The position numbers and the translations under genes were made by a program. Source: Patescibacteria group bacterium (lineage in GTDB: Bacteria > Patescibacteriota > Patescibacteriia > Magasanikbacterales > GWA2-37-8). From it: DNA of 64,000 nt. The stretch lies in the NCBI GenBank assembly GCA_004321885.1, contig SCQK01000014.1:1-64000 (forward strand). The letters run 5' to 3'. Below, piece by piece: positions 4,101 through 49,419 of the stretch. Numbering within the stretch: position 1 is the stretch's first letter; every line of letters starts with the position of its first letter. A model generated the notes under the pieces. It saw nothing but the letters and a program-made list of their open reading frames with translations. It was not told the origin of the DNA and ran no database searches.

Positions 4101-7100
4101 CAGTTTGGAGCCGGCACTGTGACAGCCACTATTGCCTCGGTGAATACCAGCACCAATAAGATTACTCTTAATTTAGGCATTGTCGGCGGGCCCACTGGTC
4201 CGGGCGATCGTTTGTTCATTGATTTGCGCAAAATAATCAATCAGTCAACCCCGAACAATCCGTCCATTGGCGGAAGCAAACTTAGTATTAGTATTCTAAG
4301 AAGCAACGCGGTTCTGGCCAGCAAGACCACCATGGAATATTATGTCATGGCCGGCGGCACCAATACCTTAAATGTGGCCGTCATTGCCGGCAGCGCCACT
4401 TCTTCGCCGCAAAGCGGAGCAAACGGAACAGTTTATTTGCACGGAGGCGGCCCGGGCGGTCCGATGGATAAAACCCTGGTGCTCTTGAATGGTTCAATTT
4501 CCACTGTTGACGGGACTTCGGCAAATTCAATTTCTTTCACCAGCTTAAATAACGGCTGTTATTTCGTTGGCACTGACCCGTTCGTTAGTTTGGGCGGGGC
4601 TGATTACTTTGGCCAGGGCATGCCCGAACCAGTCTGCTTGAATGGCAGTGCATCAAGTACCAAATATATCTTGCTCTCTCCGGCCGCTGGTTCGGGCTCG
4701 GTGACAACCACGGTTAAATTGGCTGGCATCGCGAACTTTGGCGGCGCTGACATAGACATCTTTGCCGGGGGTCCGGGCCGATTTGTGGTCAAGACACTCA
4801 CGGCTTTGGGTGCGCCCGATGCCAATGGCTATAATTTGCAACTGCCGGCCAATGGCAACTGGTTTATCGGCGTGGGTCCGGCCATGCCCAAGGGCAGTTC
4901 CATGACCATGCCAAAGACATTGCCGGGCGTGCCTCCGGCTCCGATTGATGTGGCTGTGAGCGGCGTTGGTTCTGGTTCCCCCTCTGTTACCCGCAACAGC
5001 TTCATGCCTCTGCCTTCCAGCGTCAGCTTCAATGATACCTCGGATACGATTACCTTTACCTTTGCCACGGCTGATAAAATGGTAACCGGCACAGTGAAAG
5101 ACGGCGCTGGAAACGGGTTGGCGAATATTCAGGTATTCTTGCACCAGCAGGGGTTTGGCGCGCCAACATTTGGGCAGACCAATGCCTCGGGCACGTTTAC
5201 ATTGTCTGTGTCGGATTATGGCAGTTATGAAATCGGCGCGTTTAGAGATGGCATGCCGCCGGTGTTCAAGAGCCTGGAGATTAGAACCGACGGCGACGAT
5301 GCCGACAGCTTGGCTGACATCTATTATCAGGGCAAGTTGATTACCCAGGCCAACCCGCTGGTGCTGACGATGAAAAAAGCGGCCTATACTATTTCCGGCA
5401 AGGTGCTTGACGCGAGCAACAACAGCATAGACGGGGCTCCGGTGTTCGCGGTGGACGAGAACGGCAATAGCGCCATGGGCATGACAGCCTCGGACGGCAG
5501 CGGCTATTCCATATTTGTGGACGCCGGCACCTGGACAGTGCGCGCTGAATTGCCTCCGGATAAATCTGACACCTGCGGGTCTTTCTCCAAGAGTGTCGTA
5601 GTCACCAACGCCAGCAAGTCATTGCAAAACATCAGCCCGTCCACAGCCACCTGTATCACGCTTAGCGGCACGGCCAGCGCCGGCGGCACGGCCATTGCCA
5701 ACGCCCCTTTGTTTATAGAGGAATGGGACAACACCAACAGCCGGCCGGTGCAGGGCGGGGTAAAACGCGGCACGGCTACGGACAGCAATGGCGCCTATTC
5801 GGTGAAATTGGCCGGCAATACCACTTATCGCGTAGGCACCTGGAATCCGACTTATGGCGAGCTTAGCGCGGTCAAGGCGGTGCTGGCAATAGATGCCACG
5901 CAAAATTTGACTCTTTCTTCAACCAGCACGGTTACATTCAATTTCACCGGCGGTACCGCCAACATGAAGGCTTTTGTTGAATTGAAGAATGCCACTGATA
6001 AAATGAAAAGAATCGGCAAACAGGTAGAGTCGCTGGCCAGCGCCGCCACTGTTTCTGTTGAAGGCGGAGCAACCTACAATTACTTCGTTGACGTGTTCGG
6101 ATTTGGCAAGTTCACGGGTTCAGTGGCCGCCGGCGCTTCAGCCACGGTAGACGTTTCCACGGTCGGCTTTATCACGGTTTCCGGCACCATATACAGCGGC
6201 GCCGGCACGACCACGCCTGTGTCCGGAGCCCTCGTCACCTTTACCAATACCAGCACCGGCATAGTGCAAAGCGCGTCCACTAATGCCAGCGGCACGTATA
6301 GCGTGAAAATTAAAGCCGGTGATTACGCGGTAAGCGCCGGTCTAAATGAATATCTGCCCGGGCAAACCGCCGCGGTAGTTTCTTTCGCTACCACCACTCT
6401 GAATTATGATTTCGGCGGCGCGGCTCCGGACCAGGTGGCCATGGTCAGAGCAAATCGCACTATTGAAGGATTTATTTCCACTTCGGCCAGCGCTTCCACT
6501 TCCCAGGGATACGTCTGGGCCACTAACGCGTCGGGCACTGTCATCAGTGCGCCTATCAACGCGAATGGCACGTATTCATTGTCTGTCAACGACGGGTCCT
6601 GGACCGTAAAAGCGACCGCGCCCAGGCACGCGGAAACCACCAAGAGCGCCGCCGTAACAGTCTCGGGAAGTAATTCCACGGGCAACAACTTTACCCTTAC
6701 CGCTGATGCCACGCGCGTGCCCACCTCAACCTCGGGCATTGTGGCGGCCAATAGCGGCGGCTCGGTAAACGACAGCAACAATACCGGCATAAAAGTAGTA
6801 GCCGGCCCGGGCGTGCTTGAAGCCGGTTCTACCAATAATGTTACGGTTAGTCTGGAAAAAACATACAGCGCCCCGGCTTCCAGCGAATTCAACGCCTTAG
6901 GCAACGCGACTTACAGCATCACGGCCAAGACCACTTCCCAGGTTAAAGATTTGGTAGGCAATGCCGATATTCAGCTTGATTACACCAGCATGGTCGCGCA
7001 ATTGCCCACCGGAGTGACGGAAGCAGACCTGAAACTGATGTACTTGTCTTCTGAAACCGGCAAATACGTGTCAGTGGAAGGCGGCTATACCATAGACGCG

Positions 7101-12027: not shown

Positions 12028-12618
12028 ATGCTTATGCTAAAAATTAAGAATGATGAACTGATAAAAGAATTAGTCGGTTCCGAGGCGGAATTTCCCAAAT
12101 ACGCTACCCAACTGATCAATCTTGCCAATCAAAACGCCCAGGGTACGAGACCAAAAGTTGTTGGTCAATTGTCCGAGTTGATTAATGAGTGCCCTAAGAA
12201 GACGTATGAGGGTTGGCGCGACTGGTACCTCGCCAAACATCCGGACGCGATCAAAAATGCCGTGGTAAAGATAAATCAGATGATGGAGAATTTTAAGTTG
12301 GCCATCAAATCCATCAATAAAAAAATGATTGAAAAATGGGTTAGGGATTTAGTACTGGAAAAAACTTATGTGGGGTTGAGATTCCAGGAAGCCATATTAA
12401 AAAAAGTGGCGCAAATCAAAAAAATAAGCTATCAATTATCAACCGCCCAAGAAGAATCCTGCGGGATAGACGGATATGTCGGCGGTGAAGCCGTCTCTGT
12501 TAAGCCTATGTCGTACAAGACAAAGGCCGCTTTGGGAGAAACATTAGGAGGAAAAATAATTTTTTACGAAAAGAAAAAAGACGGCTTAAACATAGACGCG
12601 GATTTGATATTAAAATAA
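12028..12618 (+). CDS. Candidate type II restriction endonuclease, partner of the adjacent methyltransferase
   Basis: 196-aa ORF ending 4 nt before the MTase start and co-oriented with it; no recognisable housekeeping domain. Assignment is by operon context only. Confidence 0.4.
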   Translation: MLMLKIKNDELIKELVGSEAEFPKYATQLINLANQNAQGTRPKVVGQLSELINECPKKTYEGWRDWYLAKHPDAIKNAVVKINQMMENFKLAIKSINKKMIEKWVRDLVLEKTYVGLRFQEAILKKVAQIKKISYQLSTAQEESCGIDGYVGGEAVSVKPMSYKTKAALGETLGGKIIFYEKKKDGLNIDADLILK

Positions 12619-12622
12619 TAAC

Positions 12623-13576
12623 ATGGGCACGAATCATAGAATAATTATTGGCGATTCGCGGCAGATGTCGGAGCTTAGCGACAAATCTGTCCATCTTATT
12701 ATAACCTCACCGCCTTATTGGCAGATAAAGGATTATGGCAGTGCCGATCAGATAGGTTTTAACGATACCTACGAGGAATACATAAAAAATTTGAATCAGG
12801 TGTGGTCCGAATGCGCGCGCGTTTTGCATGATGGTTGCCGCATGGTGATAAATATCGGCGATCAATTTGCCAGGGCCGTTACATACGGGAGGTATAAAGT
12901 GATACCCATTCGCGAAGAGATAATCAAATTTTGCGAATCAATCGGCTTTGATTATATGGGCGCGATTATTTGGCAGAAAGTGACGACGATGCACACTACC
13001 GGCGGCGCCTCAATTATGGGTTCTTTTCCGTACCCGAGGAACGGCATGATAGCGATAGATTATGAGTTCATATTGCTTTTCAAAAAGCTGGGCAAGGCGC
13101 CCAATAATGTGACTGCGGATATAAAAAAGAAATCAGAGATGACGAAAGAAGAATGGAGAGAATACTTTACCGGACATTGGAATTTTGTTGGCGAGAAGCA
13201 AAACGGCGGGCATATCGCGATGTTTCCCGAAGAGCTACCCAAGCGCATTATAAAAATGTTTAGTTTTTTTGGGGAAACGGTGCTTGATCCGTTTTTGGGC
13301 AGTGGCACGACAACAAAGACAGCCCGGGAGTTAGGCCGCAATTCTGTTGGGTACGAAATCAATAATGATTTTTTGTCGGTTATTAAGGAAAAAGTCGGCA
13401 TTAATAAAATGTCGCTCTTCAATCGCGATACGAAGTATGACGTCGTAAATCAGCAGAAAAATTACGGGCTGAAACAAAAAGGTATTGAAAAAAAAGATTC
13501 CATAATTAAAAATAGAGTTAACGATCCGAATTTTTGGAAATTATTAAAAGAGAAAAGATGCAAGGTCGTCACTTAA
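12623..13576 (+). CDS. DNA methyltransferase, beta-class amino-MTase (N4-cytosine or N6-adenine; SPPY catalytic motif)
   Basis: Motif IV LIITSPPYW near the N-terminus and motif I FLGSGTT near the C-terminus (circular permutation typical of the N6_N4_Mtase family). Confidence 0.85.
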   Translation: MGTNHRIIIGDSRQMSELSDKSVHLIITSPPYWQIKDYGSADQIGFNDTYEEYIKNLNQVWSECARVLHDGCRMVINIGDQFARAVTYGRYKVIPIREEIIKFCESIGFDYMGAIIWQKVTTMHTTGGASIMGSFPYPRNGMIAIDYEFILLFKKLGKAPNNVTADIKKKSEMTKEEWREYFTGHWNFVGEKQNGGHIAMFPEELPKRIIKMFSFFGETVLDPFLGSGTTTKTARELGRNSVGYEINNDFLSVIKEKVGINKMSLFNRDTKYDVVNQQKNYGLKQKGIEKKDSIIKNRVNDPNFWKLLKEKRCKVVT

Positions 13577-18413: not shown

Positions 18414-18447
18414 TTGGAAATTGGTCATTGGAAATTTTAAATGTATG
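18414..18447 (+). promoter_or_regulatory. Family C motif TTGGAAATTGGTCATTGGAAATTTTAAATGTATG (direct repeats of TTGGAAATT flanking GGTCA), ending in ATGTATGTTT
   Basis: Shares the TTGGTCATTG core and the ATGTATGTTT start context with 43187..43228. Confidence 0.4.
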
Positions 18448-18729
18448 TTTTCCTCCTTGCAAAGAAATATTTTGAGAGAATGTTGCGGCGCCCCGAAGGG
18501 GGCCCTTCGGGCCAAGGGGGCGAAAGTTGACCGCAAAGTTTTTGACAAGCTCCGGCCGGTAAAAATTGTCACTAAAAGTTTGGAGCGGCTGATAGACAGG
18601 GGAGACCTGGTGGGCTATGGCGTGCGCACGCCGAAGAAATGGTTTATTAAAGAAGTGAAAGCGACCAGGCAGGGCTTGAAGGACTGGGTCAAGTTCATGG
18701 CCAGCAGACAAAAGAGATTGCCGTTGTGA
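18445..18729 (+). CDS. Hypothetical small basic protein (uncertain)
   Basis: Lys/Arg-rich ORF between aspS and scpA; the first ATG is 18445 and the track start 18391 is TTG. It overlaps GC hairpins at 18481..18520, so it may be non-coding. Confidence 0.3.
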   Translation: MFSSLQRNILRECCGAPKGALRAKGAKVDRKVFDKLRPVKIVTKSLERLIDRGDLVGYGVRTPKKWFIKEVKATRQGLKDWVKFMASRQKRLPL

Positions 18730-18731
18730 TT

Positions 18732-19460
18732 ATGCTGGAATTTAGACTGCCCCGACGTAAAGTCGGGGTCCCGACCGAAGCGTCGGGAGAAAAATTTGAA
18801 GGGCCGCTGGATTTGCTTTTGCAGTTGATTGAACAGGAAGAAATGAACATCAGCGAAGTGTCGCTGTCAAAAATTACCGAACAATTTTTTGTTTATCTGG
18901 ACAAGCTGGAGCAGGGGCGCTCGGAAGAATTGGCGGATTTTTTGGTTATCGGCGCCAAGCTGGTTTACTTGAAATCCAGACAGCTCTTGCCGGTTTTGCA
19001 TCCGGAAGAAGACGACGGCCCGTCCTTGGCCGACCAGCTCAAAATGTACAAGCAGTATGTTGAAGCGAGCAAGAAAATAAACGAGCTGTGGGAAGCGGGT
19101 AAAGTATCTTATGGGCGAATGGAGCCGCCGGTAAAGGCCCAAGGGTTTACGCTTCCGGCCAATGGCTGGCAAGACGACCTGTATCACGCGATGCATGAAC
19201 TGGTAAAGCGCTTGAAGCCCATAGACCCTTTGCCGGCCGCTACCATTGATTACAACGTGTCGGTAAAGCAGAAGATAGACAGCCTACGTTCGCTGTTAAA
19301 AAAAGGAAACGGCGTAAATTTTGTCCGGCTTTTGTCCGACGCCAAGAACAAAACCGAAGTGATAGTAAGTTTTTTGGCCGTGCTGGAATTAGTGAAAGAA
19401 AAATGGGCAAGCGTGAAGCAAAAAAACGCGTTTGGGGAAATGGTGGTTGAAAAAGTATGA
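18732..19460 (+). CDS. scpA: Segregation and condensation protein A (kleisin)
   Basis: LDLLLQLIEQEEMNISEVSLSKITEQF is the characteristic ScpA N-terminus; a GTG start at 18726 is also possible. Confidence 0.8.
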   Translation: MLEFRLPRRKVGVPTEASGEKFEGPLDLLLQLIEQEEMNISEVSLSKITEQFFVYLDKLEQGRSEELADFLVIGAKLVYLKSRQLLPVLHPEEDDGPSLADQLKMYKQYVEASKKINELWEAGKVSYGRMEPPVKAQGFTLPANGWQDDLYHAMHELVKRLKPIDPLPAATIDYNVSVKQKIDSLRSLLKKGNGVNFVRLLSDAKNKTEVIVSFLAVLELVKEKWASVKQKNAFGEMVVEKV

Positions 19461-22926: not shown

Positions 22927-23667
22927 ATGTTAGACAGTCTGATTCTAAATAAAAAGTCCATAGAGAGTATTTATAAAACTGTCAAAGATTTTCACGAAAA
23001 ATATTTGAAGAAGTTTGGCGTAAAATTGCCAAAACTATACAATTCCGGCGGAAAATTTTCTAAAGACGCGCTCGTTCTGGTTTATTTGACGTATGATTAT
23101 CCAAAAACAAGAAAAGTTTCAAAAGAAGAACTGACAAAATTCATAAGAAGCCACTATCCGGACACAAATGACGTACAGCAGGCCAGACATTTGGGGGCGC
23201 AAGCTGGCTGGTGGATAGTGGCCGGCGGGCGAGATAATATCGTTTTGGATATAAAGCGAGGATATTATCAACTTTATACCCTGGAGCAGCCTTACCCGGG
23301 ATTTAAGAAAGGCCATAGAATTTTAGAAACCGATAATTGGGCCGAAATAAAAGAAAAATACAATTTCCGTTGCGCCACTTGCGGTTCGCAGGAAGGGAAA
23401 CCCCATTTTCATTGGCCGGCGACAAAAACAATTTTGCAAAAAGCGCATATGGACCCAAACAAGCCGTTTGTTGCCGGAAATATAATCCCGCAATGTCAAA
23501 AGTGTAATATGGGCGATAGAAACAGGTGGGTTTATGATGATAAAGGAAGGGTTATAAAATTAGCAGATGCAAATTTTGTTAAAAATTTTGATAAGGATGT
23601 AAGGCAAAAAATTTACAAGATTTTATACAACGAATTTAACGGAAAAAAACCTAATTCCAAAAGATAA
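22927..23667 (+). CDS. Candidate HNH-family type II restriction endonuclease
   Basis: C-terminal CATCGS...HFHW...QKAHMDPNK...NIIPQCQKCN is a CxxC/H/N/CxxC HNH (beta-beta-alpha-Me) pattern; it sits immediately upstream of and co-oriented with a DNA MTase. Confidence 0.5.
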   Translation: MLDSLILNKKSIESIYKTVKDFHEKYLKKFGVKLPKLYNSGGKFSKDALVLVYLTYDYPKTRKVSKEELTKFIRSHYPDTNDVQQARHLGAQAGWWIVAGGRDNIVLDIKRGYYQLYTLEQPYPGFKKGHRILETDNWAEIKEKYNFRCATCGSQEGKPHFHWPATKTILQKAHMDPNKPFVAGNIIPQCQKCNMGDRNRWVYDDKGRVIKLADANFVKNFDKDVRQKIYKILYNEFNGKKPNSKR

Positions 23668-23670
23668 TTT

Positions 23671-24669
23671 ATGAAAAATAATAAGTTCATAAATAAAATT
23701 ATTTGTGCGGATACGTTAGAATTACTTCCCCAAATTGAGGATAATTCTATTGACGTTGTTTTGACCGACCCGCCGTATTTTTTGGACAAGCTGGATAATA
23801 ACTGGGATTACGAAAAAGTCTCCAATCAAAACAATCAATATGCTATAAAATCTTTGCCTGCCGGCATGAAATTTGACAGAGAGCAGGGGAAAAGATTTTA
23901 TGCTTGGTATTTAGATATTTCAAAAGAAATTTTTAGGATTTTAAAACCGGGTGGATTTTTCTTTTCATTTTCCAGTCCTCGGCTTTACCACCGAATGGCT
24001 TCGGCAATAGATGACGCAGGTTTTGAAATAAGAGACGCGTTTATGTGGCTTTATACTCAAAATCAAGCCAAAGCGATGGGCGTTGATCATTTTATTAAAA
24101 AAATGAATATAGACGAAAAGGCCAAAGAAAAAATCAAGGAAAAACTGAATGGCTGGAAAACCCCGCAAATAAAATCCTGTTTTGAACCAATCGCAATGGC
24201 GCAAAAACCCGCCGACCAGACATATTTAAGTAATATGTTGAAGCACGAAGTGGGTTTGTTTAACACAAACGTGCGGATTGGCGATAATATGTATCCGGCA
24301 AATGTTTTTACGATAGAAAGCATCAACGAACTAGTAGATAAAGCGTTTTTATTGCCAAAACCGACAAAGAAAGAAAAGGGAGAATACAACGACCACAAAA
24401 CCGTGAAGCCGTTGGCTATTTGCGAATATTTAATTAAACTTTCCGCTTTTGCAAAAAACGCGGTTGTCCTTGATCCGTTTGTCGGCAGCGGGACAACCGC
24501 GGTGGCGGCAAAAAAATTGGGTAAGAATTATATTGGCATTGACGCGAACGAGAAATACGTGGAACTTTCCGAGCGCCGGCTGAAAGATTTGGATGAAAAA
24601 CAGGATTTATTCCAGATTGTTGAGAGAGAGAAAATAAAAAATTTACAAATGGAATTACAAGTTTTATAA
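23671..24669 (+). CDS. DNA methyltransferase, beta-class amino-MTase (DPPY)
   Basis: Motif IV VVLTDPPYF near the N-terminus and motif I FVGSGTT near the C-terminus. Confidence 0.85.
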   Translation: MKNNKFINKIICADTLELLPQIEDNSIDVVLTDPPYFLDKLDNNWDYEKVSNQNNQYAIKSLPAGMKFDREQGKRFYAWYLDISKEIFRILKPGGFFFSFSSPRLYHRMASAIDDAGFEIRDAFMWLYTQNQAKAMGVDHFIKKMNIDEKAKEKIKEKLNGWKTPQIKSCFEPIAMAQKPADQTYLSNMLKHEVGLFNTNVRIGDNMYPANVFTIESINELVDKAFLLPKPTKKEKGEYNDHKTVKPLAICEYLIKLSAFAKNAVVLDPFVGSGTTAVAAKKLGKNYIGIDANEKYVELSERRLKDLDEKQDLFQIVEREKIKNLQMELQVL

Positions 24670-29995: not shown

Positions 29996-31141
29996 TTATT
30001 CAGCGGCTATTTGCCTTCTAATCGTTTCCATCACCTCTCTTTCCACCTCTTTCAACGTCTTGTTTTTGATAAAAAAGGAGGCGGTTTTATTGTTGCCGTC
30101 GGGCTTAAACGGCGCCAGGAGCTGTTTGGCGTTATACTGTTTGTCGGCGGTTAACGTCACTTTGTATTTGCCCACGCTTTCAGGCTCTTCGTAAATTATC
30201 AGAATCAGCCGCGCTTCGGGCGAGTTGGCGATGAGGTCCTCGGTTAGGCCGGTCAGCTCGTCGGGTGTGGCGCCCGAGCGGATAAATTCTTCGCGCGTGA
30301 CGTTGGTCCAGACCAACCCCAGGCGGCTGTCATTTTCCAGGTGCGACAAAGCTTGCCCCCACAGTTTGAGAGAGGAAAGCGGCTTGGCCAGATACAAAAA
30401 GCGGATAATTTTTTCCCGGTCCGCGCCCATATCTATCAGCTTGCTGGCCAAGCTTAAAGTATAGGGGGTAACGTTGGATGATTTGAAGCTTTGCGTGTGG
30501 GAAATCATTCCGGTAAGAAGGGCCGTGGCGATGTTCTCGTCTATGTAGGCTTCGCCCAATTTTTCCAAGGATTTATAGATGACTTCGCAGGTGGAAGTGG
30601 CGGTGATTTCCACGAAGTTCAGCTGGCCGAAGTGTTCGTTGGACGGGTGGTGGTCAAAGTTGACAATGGGCGCGGCGTAGAATAGGTCGGTGTTGCTAAA
30701 AAAAATCGAACCCAAAGATTCCAAGTCCTGGGCGCTGACCGCTATAATGGCGTCATATTTGAAAGCTGATTGCGCGGTACGCAGTTCGTTTTTGGTGATG
30801 ACGCCAGTTTTTGGCGTGAGGTAAATGGAAAGCCATTCGTCTTTTACGTCGTAGCTTATGGTGTCTATCTTGGCCTTGGAAACATCCACTTTGATGATAA
30901 ATTTTTGTAGGTTGGTGATTTCGTCCTTGATTTGTTCTATGCCGTGCAAAAAGCGCAAATTTTTGGGCGCGCTAAAATCCGAGGCCACTATGTCGGCCTG
31001 CTTGTTTTGTTTTTGCAGAAAATATTTCCAGGCCAGGGCGCCGCAAACAGCGTCGGTATTGTTTTTAGCGTTAAAAACAATCAGGAAGTGTTTGCTGTTG
31101 TTTATCAGCTGGTGTAGTTGTTGGATTTCATCAAAAGCCAT
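29996..31141 (-). CDS. DHH-family phosphoesterase (NrnA-like nanoRNase / pAp phosphatase)
   Basis: NFDHHPSN DHH motif with typical flanking architecture; it is convergent with gpmI copy 2. Confidence 0.65.
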   Translation of the reverse strand: MAFDEIQQLHQLINNSKHFLIVFNAKNNTDAVCGALAWKYFLQKQNKQADIVASDFSAPKNLRFLHGIEQIKDEITNLQKFIIKVDVSKAKIDTISYDVKDEWLSIYLTPKTGVITKNELRTAQSAFKYDAIIAVSAQDLESLGSIFFSNTDLFYAAPIVNFDHHPSNEHFGQLNFVEITATSTCEVIYKSLEKLGEAYIDENIATALLTGMISHTQSFKSSNVTPYTLSLASKLIDMGADREKIIRFLYLAKPLSSLKLWGQALSHLENDSRLGLVWTNVTREEFIRSGATPDELTGLTEDLIANSPEARLILIIYEEPESVGKYKVTLTADKQYNAKQLLAPFKPDGNNKTASFFIKNKTLKEVEREVMETIRRQIAAE

Positions 31142-31240
31142 GTATTTTTTAGCTAACTTAACACAAACTTCCCGCGCAAAGGCGAGAGAATATAGAAGTT
31201 TATCATAATAGAGCCAAAAGTCAACCTTGACACGATGTCG

Positions 31241-31342
31241 CTGGCTCCATGCTGTGCGTGGAGCCAGAGTGCATTACGGCTCCATAGTCCCCGACTTAGT
31301 CGGGGCTGTGGAGCCAGCGAAGAATGGCGCCCTGGGCGCCAT
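31241..31342. repeat. Cluster of three GC-rich hairpins with reused stem sequence (CTGGCTCCA/TGGAGCCAG twice; nested CCCCGAC/GTCGGGG; ATGGCGCC/GGCGCCAT)
   Basis: Perfect inverted repeats read from the sequence in the 330-nt gap between the minus-strand DHH gene start and the truncated MTase. Confidence 0.5.
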
Positions 31343-31471
31343 AAGCCGCTGCGAACACATCCAGTCCGCGCGAGCGCCGTTCAAATTTCTTCAGCCCGGC
31401 AATCACTAAGCATTTGCTTTTTTCCCTTTTTTTTAGTAAAATAAAGCCTACGAAATACAGTAATTCAACCT

Positions 31472-31861
31472 ATGGGAAAGGAAAATATTAAACCAAAAGC
31501 AGACAGGAATCGCACAATAACGTTAAATGATTTAGATGTCTGCTATCTTAAGAAGCGGTTAATAAAGCTGGATAAGCCCGTGTCTTTTTCGGAAATAGAA
31601 AATAAGACTATCCATCAAGATATATTTGAAGCCCTTGATTATCTGCCTGAAAAATTTGTCGATTTGGTTTTTGTTGATCCGCCATACAATCTCAATAAGA
31701 CTTTTAATTTTACCTCGTTTAAGGCGATGGATTCGGAAAAATACGAAGAATGGCTTGATTCTTGGTTAAAAAAAATTGTTCGTTTATTAAAACCGCACGC
31801 GTCGGTTTATATCTGTGGCGACTGGAAATCTTCGGGGGCGATTTTTAATGTGGCGAATTAA
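31472..31861 (+). pseudogene. Truncated N-terminal fragment of a beta-class DNA amino-methyltransferase
   Basis: Contains motif IV FVDPPYNL and the following helix, then stops after 129 aa; no FxGSGTT motif I occurs downstream in any frame. Confidence 0.6.
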
Positions 31862-31865
31862 AATT

Positions 31866-32537
31866 ATGAATAGTACAAACAAAAAATTGAGTTATACTGA
31901 TGCCGCGTACGAAATTCTCAAACAGACCAATGAAGCATTATCGTCAGTAGAATTAGTGGATATTGCCTTAACGAAAGGCACACTCGAAACAAAAGGGAAG
32001 ACGCCTGAAGCGACAATGGGTGCGTCTCTATATTTGGAGTGCCAAAGAAGAAACAATGAATCACGATTTGTTAAGGTGGGGAGAGATAAATGGGCTTTGT
32101 CGGAATGGGGTAAAAAAGCTATCCAAGTTGAAATTGAAAAATACGATAAGGCGACTCAAGAAATTCAATTAAAAATTCGTAAAACAATTGTTGGCGATCC
32201 GTTAAATTTTGACGGGCTACAATACGCGCCCATAAATGAACAAGGTGTGGTTTTTCTTTTTGGGAAGTTGCATAAGGAGTTGGGGATAATAGTTGAGGCG
32301 ATACAAACAGGATTCCCAGATGCAAAGGGACGTAAGAAAATACGAGCCGGTTGGCAAGAGATAGCAATTGAGTTTGAGTATCGCAGTTCTAATTTTTTGT
32401 CTCATAAGCACGAGATTCAACACTGTGATTTGATTGTATGTTGGATGCACGATTGGAAAGAGTGCCCGTTAGAAGTAGTTGAGTTGAAGTCAATTATTGA
32501 AAAGAAATTAAAAAATGGAGATGAACAAAATTTTTGA
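31866..32537 (+). CDS. HARE-HTH domain protein; likely the N-terminal part of a frameshifted restriction endonuclease
   Basis: N-terminus LSYTDAAYEILKQTNEALSSVELV...GKTPEATMGASLY...RFVKVGRDKWALSEW matches the HARE-HTH fold; its C-terminus overlaps the next ORF in another frame at an A6 run. Confidence 0.5.
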   Translation: MNSTNKKLSYTDAAYEILKQTNEALSSVELVDIALTKGTLETKGKTPEATMGASLYLECQRRNNESRFVKVGRDKWALSEWGKKAIQVEIEKYDKATQEIQLKIRKTIVGDPLNFDGLQYAPINEQGVVFLFGKLHKELGIIVEAIQTGFPDAKGRKKIRAGWQEIAIEFEYRSSNFLSHKHEIQHCDLIVCWMHDWKECPLEVVELKSIIEKKLKNGDEQNF

Positions 32538-33156
32538 AGAAAAATATAGGAAAAGAATTGAAGGAAATATCAAAAGGTTGCTTAATATTAATTTTAGTAT
32601 TCTCAAAATTGAACGACCATGGGCTGTTGGAGATTTTTTTGGAAATGACTTTGAAAAAATTTTTGGCAATTTAGGATTAAATTATTCGTTGTCTTTCGCC
32701 CGTCGCGCCATGGCCGATTTGGCGTTTACGGATAAAAACGGATTTTATTATGTCGTTGACGTAAAAACGCACCGGCTTGACACAAAATTCAATATGCCCA
32801 ATCTGACTTCGGTAGAACGGCTGGCGCGATTTTACGAGGAAGATGCCAATTATTTTTCTATCCTTAAGGTTGATTACCTTGCCAATGGAACGCGGGCTGA
32901 AATTAAAAAAGTCACTTTCGCGCCGATTGAATTTTTTGATTGGAGTTGTCTGACTATCGGCACGTTGGGATGGGGCCAAATTCAAATCGCGAACGCGAAT
33001 GTCGTAAAAATAGCACACAAAAACAGTCGGAAAAAATGGATGCTGGATTTATGCGATACGATGTTGGATTTTTATCCAAAGGAGATAGGAAAAATACATG
33101 AGAGGGTAGAACATTTCAAGAAAGTGAGGAAATTTTGGGAGAAGAAGACGAGTTAA
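32515..33156 (+). CDS. PD-(D/E)xK-type restriction-endonuclease-like protein (possible C-terminal part of a split gene)
   Basis: FTDKNGFYYVVDVKTH fits a PD...(D/E)xK core; the ORF overlaps the HARE-HTH ORF by 23 nt in a different frame. Confidence 0.45.
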   Translation: MEMNKIFEEKYRKRIEGNIKRLLNINFSILKIERPWAVGDFFGNDFEKIFGNLGLNYSLSFARRAMADLAFTDKNGFYYVVDVKTHRLDTKFNMPNLTSVERLARFYEEDANYFSILKVDYLANGTRAEIKKVTFAPIEFFDWSCLTIGTLGWGQIQIANANVVKIAHKNSRKKWMLDLCDTMLDFYPKEIGKIHERVEHFKKVRKFWEKKTS

Positions 33157-33172
33157 AAACGGAAATGCCAGT

Positions 33173-35869
33173 ATGAAAGAACTTCCAAAGGCCTACGAGC
33201 CGCGAAAATACGAGGATAAGATATATGAACGTTGGGAAAAGAGCGGGTTGTTCAACCCCGATGTTTGTGTGGAAAAAGGCGTTGCCGATAAGAAGGCGAA
33301 GCCGTTTTCCATTGTCCTGCCTCCGCCCAACGTGACCGGCACCTTGCATTTGGGCCAGGCCTTGATGCTGTCGGTGCAGGATTTGCTGGTTCGTTATCAC
33401 CGCATGAAGAGCGACAAGACCTTGTGGGTGCCGGGCACTGACCACGCGGCAATTGCCACGCAGACCAAAGTGGAGAAATTGCTGATTCAGCAGGGGGTGA
33501 AAGACCCGCGCGCTGAATTGGGCCGGGAAAAATTTTTGAAAGAAGTAAACAAATTCGCGCAGGAATCGCACGATATCATCGTGAACCAGTGCCGCAAAAT
33601 GGGCGCGTCCTTGGATTGGACGCGTGAGGCCTTTACTTTGGACGAGCAAAGAAATCTGGCCGTGCGCACGATGTTCAAGATGATGTACGACGACGGCCTT
33701 ATTTACCGCGGCCATCGCATTGTAAACTGGTGCCCGCGTTGTCATTCCACTCTGGCCGACGACGAGGTGGAGTACAAAGCCCAGGCCGGCAAACTTTACA
33801 CTTTTAGATACGCCGATGATTTTCCTTTTGCCATTTCCACCACCAGGCCCGAAACCAAGCTGGGCGATACGGCCGTGGCCGTAAACCCGAACGACGAGCG
33901 CTATAAAAAATATATCGGCAAAGTTTTTGAAGTAAAAAAATTCGCGGGCGGACCGGATTTGAAAATAAAAGTGATTGCCAGCGAAGACGTGGACACAGAC
34001 TTTGGCACGGGCGCGCTTGGCGTTACTCCGGCGCACAGCTTTGCTGACTATGAAATGGCGCAAAAAAATAAATTGCTGGTGATTAAAGTGATTGATGAAG
34101 ACGGGAAAATTACCAAAGAGGCCGGCAAGCATTATAAGGGGTTCACGGTTTTGGAAGCGCGGGCGCGGGTGCTGGAAAACCTGCGCGAATTGAATTTGCT
34201 GGAAAAAGAGGAAGATGTTTCCAATAATTTATCTGTTTGCTATCGCTGTGAAAGTCCGGTGGAGCCTATTCCCTCCAAGCAGTGGTTCATAGACGTGAAC
34301 AAGAAATTCAGAATCAAGAATGAAGAATTAAGAATAAAGGGATTGAAAGTGAACAGCGAAGTGACGTTGAAACAATTGATGTCGGTCGCGGTGAAAAATG
34401 GACAGATAGAAATTATTCCGGACCGCTTCAACAAAACTTATTTTCATTGGATAGACAATTTGCGCGACTGGTGTATCAGCCGGCAAATTTGGTACGGCCA
34501 CCAGATTCCGGTGTGGTACAAAGGCGAGGAAATTTTCGTGGACGTAGAGGCGCCAAAGGGCGATGGCTGGGCTCAAGACCCAGATACGCTGGATACCTGG
34601 TTCAGCTCTGGCCTGTGGACTTTTTCCACACTTGGCTGGCCCGACAAGACCGATGACTTGAAAAATTTTCATCCCACCTCGGTGATGGAAACCGGTTATG
34701 ATATTTTATTTTTTTGGGTGGCGCGCATGATTTTGATGACGACTTACGCGTTGGGCGATATTCCTTTTGAAAAGGTTTATCTGCACGGTTTGGTGCGCGA
34801 CGAGCAGGGGCGCAAAATGAGCAAATCGTTGGGTAACGCGATTGACCCGCTGGACATGATAAGAGAGTATGGAGCCGACGCCGTCCGCCTGTCGTTGCTT
34901 ATTGGCACCAGCCCGGGCAATGATATGAAGCTGTCGGTGGAAAAAATCGCTGGTTTTCGCAATTTCACCAACAAGCTGTGGAATATCTGCCGGTTTATGC
35001 TGATGAACATCGGCAAGGATGTCATTCTGACCCCGACTCAGTCGGGGGAAGAATCCCTTTCAAAAACCCTGGCCGACAAGTGGATTTTGAATCGGTTGCG
35101 CGCAGTAATTAATATTGTCACAGAAAATATTGAAAAGTTTAATTTTTCTTACGCCGGAGAGCGTCTGCGCGATTTCACCTGGGGCGATTTGGCGGATTGG
35201 TATTTGGAGGTCGCAAAAATAGAAGGTGATAAGTCGGAAATCTTAAATTACATTTTAAGCGTGATTTTGAGACTTTGGCACCCGTTCATGCCCTTTGTCA
35301 CCGAACAAATTTGGCAGGATATTTATGGGAAAGAAAAAATGTTGATGGTGGAAAAATGGCCGGAAAAAATTAAATCGTTAGTTGATTCTTCACTCATCGG
35401 GATGACTGATTTTGATTATGCGAGAAATATAATTTTTCAACTTCGCTCATTGCGAGCTGAATATAAAATTGAACCGACAAAAAAAATAAATGTCGCAATC
35501 AGCGCGGGCGCTAAAGAACAAATTTTGAAGGATAACAAGGAGATGATCGTTAAAATGGCTAAAATTGATAATTTGATAATTGGAAAAGAGGTAAAAAAAC
35601 CGATAAACGCAGTTACATTTTTTGAACCGCCATGTGTTACTGTTTTTATGGACCTGGCTGGTTCGGTGGATTTGGTCAAGGAAAAAGAACGGCTGAAAAA
35701 AGAAATTGAGCAAACGGAAAAATATGTGGAAATACAAAAGAAAAAATTAGCCAACAAAGAATTCGTGGCAAACGCCCCCGCAGAAATCGTGGAAAAAGAA
35801 CAGCAGAAACTTTCTGAATGTGAAGCGAAGCTGGGGAAATTAAAAAATCAATTGAAGAGTCTAAAATGA
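33173..35869 (+). CDS. valS: Valyl-tRNA synthetase
   Basis: PPPNVTGTLHLGQAL (HIGH region), KMSKSLGN, and a C-terminal coiled-coil. Confidence 0.9.
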   Translation: MKELPKAYEPRKYEDKIYERWEKSGLFNPDVCVEKGVADKKAKPFSIVLPPPNVTGTLHLGQALMLSVQDLLVRYHRMKSDKTLWVPGTDHAAIATQTKVEKLLIQQGVKDPRAELGREKFLKEVNKFAQESHDIIVNQCRKMGASLDWTREAFTLDEQRNLAVRTMFKMMYDDGLIYRGHRIVNWCPRCHSTLADDEVEYKAQAGKLYTFRYADDFPFAISTTRPETKLGDTAVAVNPNDERYKKYIGKVFEVKKFAGGPDLKIKVIASEDVDTDFGTGALGVTPAHSFADYEMAQKNKLLVIKVIDEDGKITKEAGKHYKGFTVLEARARVLENLRELNLLEKEEDVSNNLSVCYRCESPVEPIPSKQWFIDVNKKFRIKNEELRIKGLKVNSEVTLKQLMSVAVKNGQIEIIPDRFNKTYFHWIDNLRDWCISRQIWYGHQIPVWYKGEEIFVDVEAPKGDGWAQDPDTLDTWFSSGLWTFSTLGWPDKTDDLKNFHPTSVMETGYDILFFWVARMILMTTYALGDIPFEKVYLHGLVRDEQGRKMSKSLGNAIDPLDMIREYGADAVRLSLLIGTSPGNDMKLSVEKIAGFRNFTNKLWNICRFMLMNIGKDVILTPTQSGEESLSKTLADKWILNRLRAVINIVTENIEKFNFSYAGERLRDFTWGDLADWYLEVAKIEGDKSEILNYILSVILRLWHPFMPFVTEQIWQDIYGKEKMLMVEKWPEKIKSLVDSSLIGMTDFDYARNIIFQLRSLRAEYKIEPTKKINVAISAGAKEQILKDNKEMIVKMAKIDNLIIGKEVKKPINAVTFFEPPCVTVFMDLAGSVDLVKEKERLKKEIEQTEKYVEIQKKKLANKEFVANAPAEIVEKEQQKLSECEAKLGKLKNQLKSLK

Positions 35870-39675: not shown

Positions 39676-40857
39676 ATGAACCGGGAAAAAAATCTGAAGA
39701 CCATGCCGCGTGCGATTTTCGTATCGCACGCATTGCTCCCCGACTACAAGTCGAGTGAGCTCATCAGCCGCCGGCTCAAAGAACTCGGCCAGGGGTGGCC
39801 GGAAAAGGGGAAAGAGCCGGGGTTTATCCACTGGCTAACCTTCCCGGTGGTTCCGCCCCAGGAGAGTGGCGGTCGGCCGATTCTCGTGGATTTTCTTATC
39901 ATTCCGCTTTTCGCCGACGCCTACTTCAGGGCTATCGCCAGCGGCAAGGCCTATGTTTGGGCCTGCGAGGCTGTGGAAAGGGCCGTTGAGAACGCGCTCT
40001 TGGACGGCGTGTCGCCTGACGATATCTGGGTTGGTTGGGGGGCGTTCACTAAGATAGCCACTCATCACGGGAAGCTATTTTTGGAGAACAACCCCAAGTT
40101 CTCCTCAAATTCAACCCATGGAGACGCTGGCACTGGCGCGTTGGTGATAGAAGCTATCCTAGAAGCCGGCTTCAAGCCTGGCTTTAAGGTAGCGGTAATC
40201 GGCGCCAATGGGGCCATTGGTGACGCGGTTAGTCGCGTTCTTCCTTCCCTATCCCCGGCGAGTATCATGCTTGTGGGCAGGGAAGACGCGCCCGGGCAGG
40301 ACCGCAATTTTCTGCGTCTGCGGGAATTGGGCGTGTGCGTGGCGCAGAAAGTGAACGGCGGCCAAACCAAAGTCACCACGCACCAGGACAAGCGCACGGC
40401 CTGTCTGGAACAGGGAAGCGACCTGGTCATAGTCGCGACAAGCGGCAGTACGGTCGTTCGTCCCACTGAAGTTCCACATGGCGCGCTGGTGCTGGACATC
40501 ACGACGCCGAGCGCGTGCGGAACAGATCCGCGCGGGTGGGAGGGCAAGATGGTAGTTTTGGCCGGTTGCGGACAGTTTCTTCCGGGTGTTCTCCCGCTGG
40601 TCTTCGGCGAGACTGGCGGCGAGCCCATACTTGACGTCGGCGCCGGCGGCGCACTCTGCTTGTGGGGTTGCACGGGCGAAACAATCTCCCGTGCGGTTTT
40701 TGGGGTTCGCGGTCATCTCGCCGGACCCGAGATCCCCTTGGAAGCGGTTACGCAATGCGCCGAGCACTTTAGGGGGCTCGGCTTTGCGCCCCAGCCTTTC
40801 ACGGCGTTCGGAAAGTCCGTCGCGACCGACGCCGTGCGCCAGTTCGTCGCCGCGTAG
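39676..40857 (+). CDS. NAD(P)-binding (GxxGxxG Rossmann) protein of unknown function; compositionally foreign (GC-rich)
   Basis: KVAVIGANGAIGDAVSRVL in mid-protein; AAGGA RBS upstream; strong intrinsic terminator downstream; GC content is visibly higher than the flanks, with many spurious overlapping ORFs on both strands. Confidence 0.5.
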   Translation: MNREKNLKTMPRAIFVSHALLPDYKSSELISRRLKELGQGWPEKGKEPGFIHWLTFPVVPPQESGGRPILVDFLIIPLFADAYFRAIASGKAYVWACEAVERAVENALLDGVSPDDIWVGWGAFTKIATHHGKLFLENNPKFSSNSTHGDAGTGALVIEAILEAGFKPGFKVAVIGANGAIGDAVSRVLPSLSPASIMLVGREDAPGQDRNFLRLRELGVCVAQKVNGGQTKVTTHQDKRTACLEQGSDLVIVATSGSTVVRPTEVPHGALVLDITTPSACGTDPRGWEGKMVVLAGCGQFLPGVLPLVFGETGGEPILDVGAGGALCLWGCTGETISRAVFGVRGHLAGPEIPLEAVTQCAEHFRGLGFAPQPFTAFGKSVATDAVRQFVAA

Positions 40858-43996: not shown

Positions 43997-44083
43997 GCCC
44001 GGGTGGCGAAACTGGAAGACGCATATCCTTGAGGTGGATACGGCCGCAAGGCCTTGGAGGTTCGAGTCCTCTCCCGGGCACCA
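43997..44083 (+). tRNA. tRNA-Leu (anticodon GAG), class II with long variable arm, CCA encoded
   Basis: Acceptor stem GCCCGGG/CCCGGGC, anticodon stem TATCC/GGATA with loop TTGAGGT, variable arm CGGCCGCAAGGCCTTG, T-arm GGAGGTTCGAGTCCTCT, and 3' ACCA. Confidence 0.85.
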
Positions 44084-48417: not shown

Positions 48418-49419
48418 ATGCCAAAAAAAGCAAAAATCGCGGTGTTGGGGGCCGGCAATATGGGCACGGCCATGGCCCAGGTGCTGGCCAAAAATGGCCA
48501 TCAAGTGTATCTGTGGAATCACGAGGGCGACCGGGAGCCGCTGGAGCAGATAAAGCGCTGGCGCGAGAACAAAAAATATTCTCCTGGTATAAAGCTGTCG
48601 CCAAAGATTGTGCCGGAGAAAGATTTGCGCGCCGCGGTCGCGGACGCGGAAATTATTTTTTTCGCGGTGCCCAGCAATTTTATGTCGGCTGTGGTCAGGC
48701 GCTCTGTCGCGTTTTTAAAAAAAGACGCGGTTTGCGTGGATGTTTCCAAGGGCCTGGACGAAAAGACCATGACGATAATTCCCCGGGTCATGCAAGGTTG
48801 TTTGCCAAAAAATTTGAATGCCAAAGTGGTTTCTATTTCCGGCCCGGCCATTGCCAACGAGCTCGCCGCGGGCGGGTTCACGGCCATGAATATCGCGGGC
48901 GCGGACAAAGCGGCCGTGGCCAAAGTCAAGCGCGCCATGGAAAGCAAAAATTTGCGCCTGCGCGCCTGCGCGGATATTCTCGGCGTGGAAATCACCGGCT
49001 CTTTCAAGAATGTTTACGCCATTGCCATGGGCGTCTGCGACGGCCTGAAAATGCCGCTCAACACCAAGGCCGCTCTTTTGGTGCTGGCGCTTAAAGAAAT
49101 CGGCCGGCTGATAAAAAAGATGGGCGGCCGGGCCGAGACGGTTTACGATTTGGCGGGCCTGGGCGACGTGGTGGGCACGGGTTTGTCTTACATCAGCCGC
49201 AACCGCAGATTTGGAGAATATCTGGCGCGCGGCTTAGCGGCCAAAAGCGCCCTCAAAAAAGTGGGCCAGACGGTTGAAGGCCTGGGCGCCAGCCGGGCTT
49301 TGATTTGTTTGGCCGGAAAATACCGGTTGAAAATGCCTTTTGCCGAGACAATTTTTCAAATTACCGAGGGCAAGGCGAAAGCGAAAGCGGCAATGGCAAA
49401 ACTGCTGGCGCATTATTGA
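48418..49419 (+). CDS. gpsA: NAD(P)H-dependent glycerol-3-phosphate dehydrogenase
   Basis: KIAVLGAGNMGTAMAQVLA N-terminal Rossmann motif and a GpsA-like C-terminal domain. Confidence 0.85.
   Translation: MPKKAKIAVLGAGNMGTAMAQVLAKNGHQVYLWNHEGDREPLEQIKRWRENKKYSPGIKLSPKIVPEKDLRAAVADAEIIFFAVPSNFMSAVVRRSVAFLKKDAVCVDVSKGLDEKTMTIIPRVMQGCLPKNLNAKVVSISGPAIANELAAGGFTAMNIAGADKAAVAKVKRAMESKNLRLRACADILGVEITGSFKNVYAIAMGVCDGLKMPLNTKAALLVLALKEIGRLIKKMGGRAETVYDLAGLGDVVGTGLSYISRNRRFGEYLARGLAAKSALKKVGQTVEGLGASRALICLAGKYRLKMPFAETIFQITEGKAKAKAAMAKLLAHY

Follow-up and report, generated by a model that had tools for sequence, protein, structure and literature searches.

Small GC-rich palindromes that recur at dispersed sites have been described in several genetic systems. 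The closest known family to the element considered here is REP/REPIN, whose members possess GC-rich palindromic cores of 14-17 nt (cf. GGGGGCTTGCCCCC of P. fluorescens; PMC3337134), carry a GTAG or CGTC tag (PMC3733652), are extragenic by definition, occur as dispersed copies with free loops that form clusters and complex arrangements, and affect their hosts incidentally. REPINs are mobilised by a RAYT transposase, and both REPIN/RAYT and IS200/IS605 systems copy themselves via a single-stranded hairpin intermediate (PMC3337134, PMC6006769). Selfish palindromes of ~100-150 bp with a recognisable peptide are found in the reduced genome of Rickettsia, both in intergenic DNA and in frame in unrelated housekeeping genes (PMC10969869), and GC-rich hairpin elements of 30-60 nt, namely the GC clusters of yeast and fungal mitochondrial DNA and the repetitive hairpin-forming elements of sponge mitochondria (the latter in PMC2800124), invade AT-richer spacers, nest and cluster. 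The present analysis concerns a cluster of GC-rich hairpins (hereafter, the block) between the divergent DHH and valyl-tRNA synthetase (ValRS) genes in the first 64,000 nt of contig SCQK01000014.1 (assembly GCA_004321885.1), a stretch referred to below as the window, whose host, judging from Pfam and homology evidence, is a Candidatus Magasanikbacteria-like Patescibacterium. Highly reduced genomes are generally believed to hold few dispersed palindromic repeats, and a literature search of incomplete coverage found no description of them in Patescibacteria or the candidate phyla radiation.

On balance, we favour the view that the block is a cluster of a small, selfish, dispersed palindromic DNA element that is REP-like or "GC-cluster"-like. 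The element would be a modular repeat. Its first tier would be an inner stem, CCCCGAC-loop-GTCGGGG; an optional second tier, GGCTCCAT..GTGGAGCC, would stand alone in the first hairpin of the block (H1) and hold tier 1 in its loop both in the second hairpin (H2) and in a copy on an outside contig (L016); and the third tier would be an AT-richer outer pairing or flank whose left side reads (C)ATT.. and whose right side reads GAARAAT. This view is carried by the recurrence of the element at nonhomologous sites and in a second organism, by its free loops, and by the lack of leader or RNA-gene features. It would behave as DNA rather than as an RNA gene, because its copies occupy unrelated sites, their loops are free, and the interior of H2 is flipped relative to its flanks.

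In addition to short GC-rich palindromic cores, dispersed copies with free loops, clustering and incidental host effects, REP/REPIN and the block have in common an inverted doublet, since H1-TGCA-H2 can form one longer hairpin from a 12-bp stem (31238-49/31309-20) and a 7-bp stem (31259-65/31278-84). However, the visible copy number is low here, the interiors of the two doublet halves are not alike, the element resides in a Patescibacterium, and no RAYT transposase is seen in the 64 kb. Because the GTAG/CGTC tag is missing and two of the three loci are intragenic (in frame in ScpA and ValRS), the element is not filed as REP. The Rickettsia palindromic elements offer a parallel for selfish in-frame palindromes in a reduced genome, but they are about five times longer than the in-frame pieces found here, which measure 31-39 nt and whose in-frame behaviour is inferred from two loci. 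In yeast and other fungal mitochondria, GC clusters are occasionally inserted in frame in genes, as in the VAR1 polymorphism of yeast; like the hairpin elements of sponge mitochondria, they are organellar, of high copy number and without sequence relationship to the block, and thus functional analogues only. Hairpin-associated minute inversions, in which the loop or interior flips between stem arms and which are known from chloroplast spacers, and template-switch mutation at quasi-palindromes both resemble what is seen here, where the H2 interior is flipped relative to L016 and H1 corresponds to an inverted-plus-direct copy of one H2 arm. These are mutational processes, however, and define no element family.

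The block consists of the following parts, none of which is assigned to a strand:

31238-31270, no strand: H1, (TCG)CTGGCTCCATGC-TGT-GCGTGGAGCCAG, a tier-2 hairpin alone
31268-31277, no strand: H1-H2 spacer AGTGCATTAC, a quasi-palindrome centred on TGCA
31278-31315, no strand: H2, tier-2 arms GGCTCCATAG / CTGTGGAGCC around a tier-1 mini-hairpin
31289-31305, no strand: the tier-1 mini-hairpin CCCCGAC-TTA-GTCGGGG (arms 31289-31295 / 31299-31305), the dispersed unit
31316-31350, no strand: H3, AGCG-AAGA-ATGGCGCC-CTG-GGCGCCAT-AAGC-CGCT
31351-31410, no strand: remaining GC-rich block with weaker imperfect hairpins, e.g. GCGAAC..GTCCGC

The three hairpins reported in the original prediction are present where it had placed them, and their stem reuse is real, with GGCTCCAT and GTGGAGCCAG each occurring twice. 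In H1, the perfect arms CTGGCTCCA (31241-31249) and TGGAGCCAG (31259-31267) enclose the loop TGCTGTGCG, and pairing can reach 12 bp around a TGT loop if one T.G pair is included; as single-stranded DNA, H1 folds with -12.9 kcal/mol on the + strand and -10.7 kcal/mol on the - strand. H2 is laid out as GGCTCCA(TAG)-T-CCCCGAC-TTA-GTCGGGG-(CTG)TGGAGCC, with outer arms at 31278-31284 and 31309-31315, 17 bp in total, the T at 31288 bulged out and positions 31285/31308 joined as a T.G pair; its single-stranded DNA fold reaches -16.9 kcal/mol (z = -7.3). H3 (-12.0 / -11.8 kcal/mol as single-stranded DNA) has inner arms ATGGCGCC at 31324-31331 and GGCGCCAT at 31335-31342 and an additional outer stem, AGCG/CGCT, at 31316-19/31347-50. 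The parts overlap in their roles: the H1-H2 spacer also serves as left flank to the H2 element, where its GTGCATT forms the 5' half of the tier-3 stem, and has its homologue in GATAGCATTAA of L016, and the initial part of H3, GAAGAATGGCGC (31319-31330), doubles as the right flank of H2.

The original prediction was also correct that mutually exclusive pairings exist. The segment TCGCTGGCTCCA at 31238-49 is complementary at 12 of 12 positions to TGGAGCCAGCGA at 31309-20, and TGGAGCC at 31259-65 can pair with GGCTCCA at 31278-84. However, the alternative long-range fold is ~10 kcal/mol less stable as RNA than the tandem H1+H2 arrangement (-46.3 vs -56.6 kcal/mol), and the architecture is that of a string of local, near-perfect palindromes without long-range pairs. 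All three exact CTGGCTCCA sites in the window fall within the hairpin locus, and the H1 arms match the 3' arm and flank of H2 as an inverted copy (reverse complement of GTGGAGCCAGCGA, 12/13) and as a direct copy (GTGGAGCCAGCG, 11/12), which explains the reused stems as a local duplication. The T.G pairs of H1 and H2 favour the + strand, and the hairpins downstream have the opposite preference, with the G.U pairs of 31351-31410 favouring the - strand.

The stability of these structures exceeds chance. The folded 246-nt region reaches -100.5 kcal/mol on the + strand and -103.9 kcal/mol on the - strand, against dinucleotide-shuffle means of -70 and -76 (z = -6.60 and -6.63, respectively), and none of 200 shuffles was equally stable. 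Among the intergenic stretches of the window, the hairpin block is a clear outlier (-0.49 kcal/nt, z = -7.1), and the window as a whole holds 27 perfect hairpins of at least 8 bp, a three-fold excess over the 8.4 +/- 3.0 expected. The spacer had been described as AT-rich, which holds for its two promoter-bearing flanks but not for the remainder: the gap overall is 48% GC, and the block is 61-65% GC compared to ~49% for the genome. Two Logan contigs of run SRR8426592 match the sequence at 100%; L040 stops at 31264, within H1, and L041 begins at 31287, within H2, so that 31265-31286 (22 nt) is without independent coverage by either. The breaks inside H1 and H2 could be due to a coverage drop at hairpins or to population heterogeneity.

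Dispersal of the mini-hairpin is evident within the window itself. The heptamer GTCGGGG occurs three times in the 64 kb, each time within a CCCCGAC..GTCGGGG palindrome and 3-5 nt past CCCCGAC, and the shorter form CCCGAC..GTCGGG yields four hairpins at three loci. With at most one mismatch to CCCCGAC/GTCGGGG allowed, 3 copies are present where 0.07 are expected by chance. The tier-1 stem is the sole GC-rich 6-bp stem that recurs at least three times in the window, and as single hexamers CCCGAC and GTCGGG are not over-represented. In ~300 kb of other loci, no tier-1 hairpin was found apart from that in L016 (L041 was left out, as it re-samples the same block). The two loci outside the block are as follows:

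18750-18788, + strand: tandem tier-1 hairpins in ScpA, CCCCGAC-GTAAA-GTCGGGG and TCCCGAC-CGAAGC-GTCGGGA, then GAAAAAT
35024-35054, + strand: two-tier palindrome of 31 nt in ValRS, ATTCT-GA-CCCCGAC-TCA-GTCGGGG-GA-AGAAT, in frame (ILTPTQSGEE)

The ScpA hairpins, in which the stem is reused, occupy 39 nt, exactly 13 codons (PRRKVGVPTEASG), in frame at the N-terminus. They begin 18 nt past the ATG, which itself lies 2 nt after the stop of the upstream open reading frame (ORF), and the alternative start GTG at 18726 would overlap that ORF; the FEGPLDLLL motif begins at residue 22, compared to residues ~8-14 in solved ScpA chains. The ValRS palindrome is situated in a variable surface-loop region where three orthologues are 5 aa shorter. 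Both in-frame copies would thus fall where insertions are tolerated, namely an N-terminal extension and a loop, although this pattern comes from two loci only. The copies also have their surroundings in common, with a purine-rich right flank in all of them (GTCGGGG/GAAGAAT in ValRS, GTCGGGA/GAAAAAT in ScpA, ..AGC/GAAGAAT in the block, where it comes after the tier-2 arm and AGC, and ..AGC/AAATAAT in L016) and, likewise, a left flank with ATT. Local alignment of the block to the ValRS copy scores 41, against 20 +/- 4.8 for random windows.

Evidence from a second organism was provided by a scan of 241 million metagenome records with a pattern of exact H2 stems and free loops, which reaches no diverged copies. 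A single further H2 copy was recovered, at 767-804 of the unrelated groundwater contig L016 (ENA ERZ1292640; 1,881 nt, 38% GC), whose name, "Hain-H43-02um", suggests a 0.2-um filter fraction. Its hairpin, GCTGGCTCCATAGTCCCCGAC-CAA-GTCGGGGCTGTGGAGCC, is identical to the H2 38-mer of the window at the 35 stem, bulge and junction positions and differs only in the loop (CAA vs TTA). It is located 10 nt past the stop of an unannotated 238-aa gene and 52 nt ahead of a CreD gene. No gene of L016 has a homologue in the window (tBLASTn of L016 proteins against the window), and L016 holds no restriction-modification (R-M) genes. A 69%-identical homologue of the 238-aa gene (contigs L017 and L018) has no hairpin after its stop codon, and the intergenic DNA of these contigs could not be aligned to that of L016 as an empty site. 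An H2 covariance model run against the window and 20 loci revealed no further full copies and flagged the inner hairpins of ValRS and ScpA.

Comparison of the 15-nt flanks on each side (GAGTGCATTAC and AGCGAAGAATGGCGC in the window, GATAGCATTAA and AGCAAATAATAGTGC in L016) gave 19 matches of 30 in one orientation (P ~5e-5) and 7 of 30 in the other. The interior of H2, as marked by the bulged T and the T.G pair, matches L016 in the orientation opposite to that of the flanks, and is therefore inverted relative to them between the two genomes. Such an interior inversion is the mark left by arm-to-arm recombination or template switching in palindromic DNA, and as a consequence of it, U.G becomes C.A in any fixed transcript.

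The position of the block was compared with that in six syntenic relatives (L003, L005, L006, L008, L010 and L011), in which the gene order ArgRS-TyrRS-ValRS / DHH-iPGM-iPGM-eno is kept, the conserved string being PGK-SIMPL-eno-iPGM-iPGM / DHH / ValRS-TyrRS-ArgRS. In L003, L005, L010 and L011, the DHH and ValRS promoters stand back to back, with AAAAAATCAAAT followed after 21-22 nt by TTGACA. The ValRS promoter of the relatives reads TTGATT, 17 nt, TAAAAT and their DHH promoter TTGACA-17-(TGA)TAAAAT, and a motif in ValRS sense, ATTTGATTTTTT..CCTT..TTTTAGTAAAAT, is conserved in L003, L005, L006, L010 and L011. The corresponding features of the window are:

31197-31224, - strand: DHH promoter, TTGACT (31224-31219), 16 nt, TAAACT, with upstream TG; homologous to the relatives' promoter
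31225-31413, no strand: spacer between the two -35 boxes, 189 nt here vs 21-22 nt in relatives
31414-31442, + strand: ValRS promoter, TTGCTT (31414-19), 17 nt, TAAAAT (31437-42), with the conserved motif
31446-33172, + strand: decayed AT-rich R-M cassette with an N6/N4 methyltransferase (MTase) fragment, a HARE-HTH ORF and a HincII-like endonuclease

The window thus contains ~165 nt of extra palindrome-rich DNA upstream of both promoters (a gap of ~170 columns in a MAFFT alignment with four relatives), and the hairpin block is not present at this site in any of the six syntenic relatives. The block is a lineage-specific insertion of ~165 nt in the promoter spacer. As it lies upstream of both conserved promoters, it belongs to neither 5' untranslated region. 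A T-run at 31420-34 resembles a terminator tail but corresponds to the conserved spacer of the ValRS promoter. The R-M cassette is an insertion separate from the hairpin block, located between the ValRS promoter and the ValRS start, and it is now driven by the ValRS promoter and read before ValRS (31414-31471; 33157-33172). In L006 (5689-5922) and L008 (~5451-5840), a small putative membrane-protein ORF fills the gap between ValRS and DHH; given such ORFs in the gap of some relatives, the ValRS-DHH spacer is a recurrent insertion site.

The following sequence of events may account for the locus. Nested and tandem copies of the element would have piled up in a permissive spot, the divergent promoter spacer of 21-22 nt, and further copies would have inserted in frame where two essential genes (ValRS and ScpA) tolerate it. 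The reused stems of H1 and H2 would stem from local inverted-plus-direct duplication of the H2 3' arm and flank, with palindrome-driven template switching or recombination behind the duplication and no evolved switch. By analogy with REPIN/RAYT and IS200/IS605, copying may proceed via a single-stranded hairpin intermediate. Effects on the promoters, such as their separation or the absorption of negative supercoils by cruciforms between divergent polymerases, would be incidental, and the block itself is probably non-functional. A broader proposal, put forward here only tentatively and with more doubt than confidence, is that these copies represent an undescribed Patescibacteria family of modular, nested mini-palindromic mobile elements with an ATT../GAARAAT-flanked tier 1, which would be copied in single-stranded form, enter promoter spacers, hairpin loops and essential genes, pass between co-resident lineages in groundwater, flip their interior by arm-to-arm recombination, and do so without an obvious transposase.

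Several observations weigh against a selfish dispersed element. A single full H2 copy is known outside the genome, and tier 1 is present at just three loci in the 64 kb. No empty site could be aligned at the nucleotide level, as protein identity to the nearest relatives is no higher than 60-69%. No terminal inverted repeat or target-site duplication was detected at the block borders, where the best local alignment scored below the shuffle mean, and a miniature inverted-repeat element of the terminal-repeat type was rejected on these grounds. No transposase, RAYT, IS200/IS605 TnpA, integrase or reverse transcriptase is encoded among the ~56 window ORFs, and the REP hallmark GTAG or CGTC stands beside no copy. 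The contrast between identical stems and flanks that have diverged by ~37% is partly an ascertainment effect of the exact-stem search. The hairpin may also have a function in protein binding or RNA stability, or the block may be transcribed.

A functional DNA element, in which hairpins or cruciforms are bound by a protein or act as a supercoil sink or insulator between the promoters and the mini-hairpin is a recognition site, appears rather unlikely. The block is placed exactly between divergent promoters, where negative supercoiling would favour cruciform extrusion; its stems are perfect with free loops, and co-option of REP elements for such roles is known (PMC3337134). The identity of the H2 stems in two genomes would also fit, but this conservation is inflated by the search design. 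The same promoter pair occurs without the block in the six relatives, and the promoters therefore do not need it; moreover, loops of 3, 5 and 6 nt argue against a dimeric site in double-stranded DNA, and the intragenic copies and the copy 10 nt past a stop codon have no common regulatory context. For a small structured noncoding RNA (ncRNA) gene of ~160-190 nt with its own unrecognised promoter, one of the possibilities raised in the original prediction, the very stable predicted fold, the + strand preference of the H1 and H2 T.G pairs, and the fact that Patescibacterial promoters and ncRNAs are poorly known could be cited, and yet the possibility is a slim one. At the gathering threshold, no Rfam family in the whole-window scan matched at the locus, and at E <= 10 over 31100-31500 (401 nt) only noise was returned (gltS, NPPA-AS1 and an alphavirus frameshift element); neither a tRNA nor a tmRNA was predicted by ARAGORN at the hairpin locus. 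A promoter scan of the locus retrieved only DHH promoter candidates and nothing sigma-70-like on the + strand, and H1, H2 and H3 all lack a T-run behind them, the genome's own terminators being canonical GC hairpins with T-runs. The two strands fold alike, the downstream hairpins favour the - strand, the palindromes are local, the block is missing here in relatives, and the sole outside homologue has its interior inverted with U.G turned into C.A. The rejection of RNase P RNA in the original prediction was right: its P4 strands are GAGGAAAGUCC / ACAGAAnnCGGCUUA, its covariance model was not matched at E <= 10, and the likeness of GGCTCCATAG is isolated.

The main suggestion of the original prediction was an attenuator- or riboswitch-like region. 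An attenuator, riboswitch or regulatory leader acting on ValRS, the R-M genes or DHH through alternative 1:2/3:4 and 1:4/2:3 pairings is hardly credible in light of these results. An A-A'-A-A' arrangement with a 12-bp long-range alternative stem is indeed present, four segments able to pair 1:2/3:4 or 2:3 are also a feature of attenuators, T-boxes and riboswitches, and ValRS genes are T-box regulated in some bacteria. However, the block is upstream of both promoters and absent from relatives, no T-box or other Rfam family matches it, and it has no U-run terminator, no sensor, no conservation, and no leader peptide with a ribosome-binding site. Its fold is strand-symmetric, H1 would form first during transcription, and nothing could sense the weaker alternative fold or couple to it. 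The idea of an insertion-site scar at the R-M boundary came closest to the evidence in that an insertion is involved, but that the block is a scar, a recombination site or one end of the adjacent cassette is very unlikely. Although it adjoins a clearly foreign, AT-rich and decayed R-M cassette, the ancestral ValRS promoter (31414-31442) separates the two, the opposite cassette end (33100-33172) is without hairpins, as are the borders of the two other R-M cassettes in the window, and the L016 copy has neither R-M genes nor any gene in common with the window. Finally, it is highly improbable that the block is GC-rich sequence arisen by chance, an artefact of assembly or the remnant of a decayed gene. 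The Logan contigs break within the block and two + frames are open across it, but no shuffle was as stable as the native fold, the sequence is 100% identical on both sides in a second assembly, and H2 recurs in an independent metagenome. As to a decayed gene, searches with translations yielded no meaningful match: the 69-aa ORF gave one low-complexity match (E = 1e-4) among 1.84 billion representative proteins, and four open-frame H2 translations gave no match among 5.8 billion proteins.

Further candidates were considered and set aside. Tandem small hairpins and a 9-nt loop between ..CCA and TG.. recall the TIGR arrays of Tas proteins known from Patescibacteria and phages (PMC12045711), but the block has no fixed-period unit, its "spacers" measure 9 and 22 nt instead of equal 8-12 nt, and no Nop-domain Tas gene is found among the window ORFs. 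The defining features or partner genes were likewise not present for a TIGR array, an integron attC site, a diversity-generating retroelement hairpin, a DNA-uptake sequence, or a CRESS/HUH origin (suggested by the 2:3 hairpin, whose 12-nt loop ends in ATTAC). Nothing beyond resemblance connects H2 with a tRNA minihelix (7-bp GGCUCCA acceptor and UA-G). When the block was compared by BLASTN with 72,556 plasmids and 50,697 phage records, no match was returned, and scans of viral contigs returned either nothing or chance matches in coding sequence or terminators (21 matches of one scan were inspected).

With regard to the host window, its ORFs comprise housekeeping genes and three R-M cassettes. 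Homologues of the DHH protein are at most 65% identical, the named ones being from Magasanikbacteria or Patescibacteria, and a genome-contig scan with the DHH protein retrieved only relatives of 26-27% identity. The R-M cassettes at 12028-13576, 22927-24669 and 31472-33156 are AT-rich (36-42% GC) and lie seamlessly in the conserved housekeeping string; they contain, respectively, a MjaI-like restriction enzyme with an MTase, an unknown ORF with an MTase between PGK and SIMPL, and the decayed MTase/HARE-HTH/HincII-like set. ARAGORN predicts a tRNA-Leu(GAG) at 43997-44083, and no Rfam family, including tRNA, reaches its gathering score in the 64 kb. A 393-aa ORF at 39676-40857 without a Pfam match has 61% GC, well above the genome average, and begins at its 5' end with a perfect 9-bp hairpin, GCGTGCGAT..ATCGCACGC (39708-39731). 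A further GC-rich and perfect palindrome, CCCGAAGG-GGGC-CCTTCGGG, is found at 18492-18511 within the N-terminal region of a small ORF without annotation (18445-18729). A GC-rich structured stretch at 49095-49339 that appeared to be intergenic proved to be the intact gpsA gene.

Taken as it stands, the analysis removes a false riboswitch, attenuator or ncRNA lead from annotation and traces the locus to independent insertion events, one of the palindrome block and one of the R-M cassette, in a conserved pair of back-to-back promoters. The points of note of the proposed family are its in-frame copies, nesting, inversion and host lineage. If the pattern held true genome-wide, it would offer a compact system for studying the spread of selfish hairpin DNA without a visible transposase, would show how essential proteins tolerate such DNA in frame, and could serve as a marker of horizontal exchange among groundwater ultra-small bacteria. 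It would also be a practical warning that short-read assemblers break contigs at such hairpins. If the broader proposal of a mobile family is true, selfish DNA would be thriving in bacterial genomes that rank among the smallest and most streamlined.

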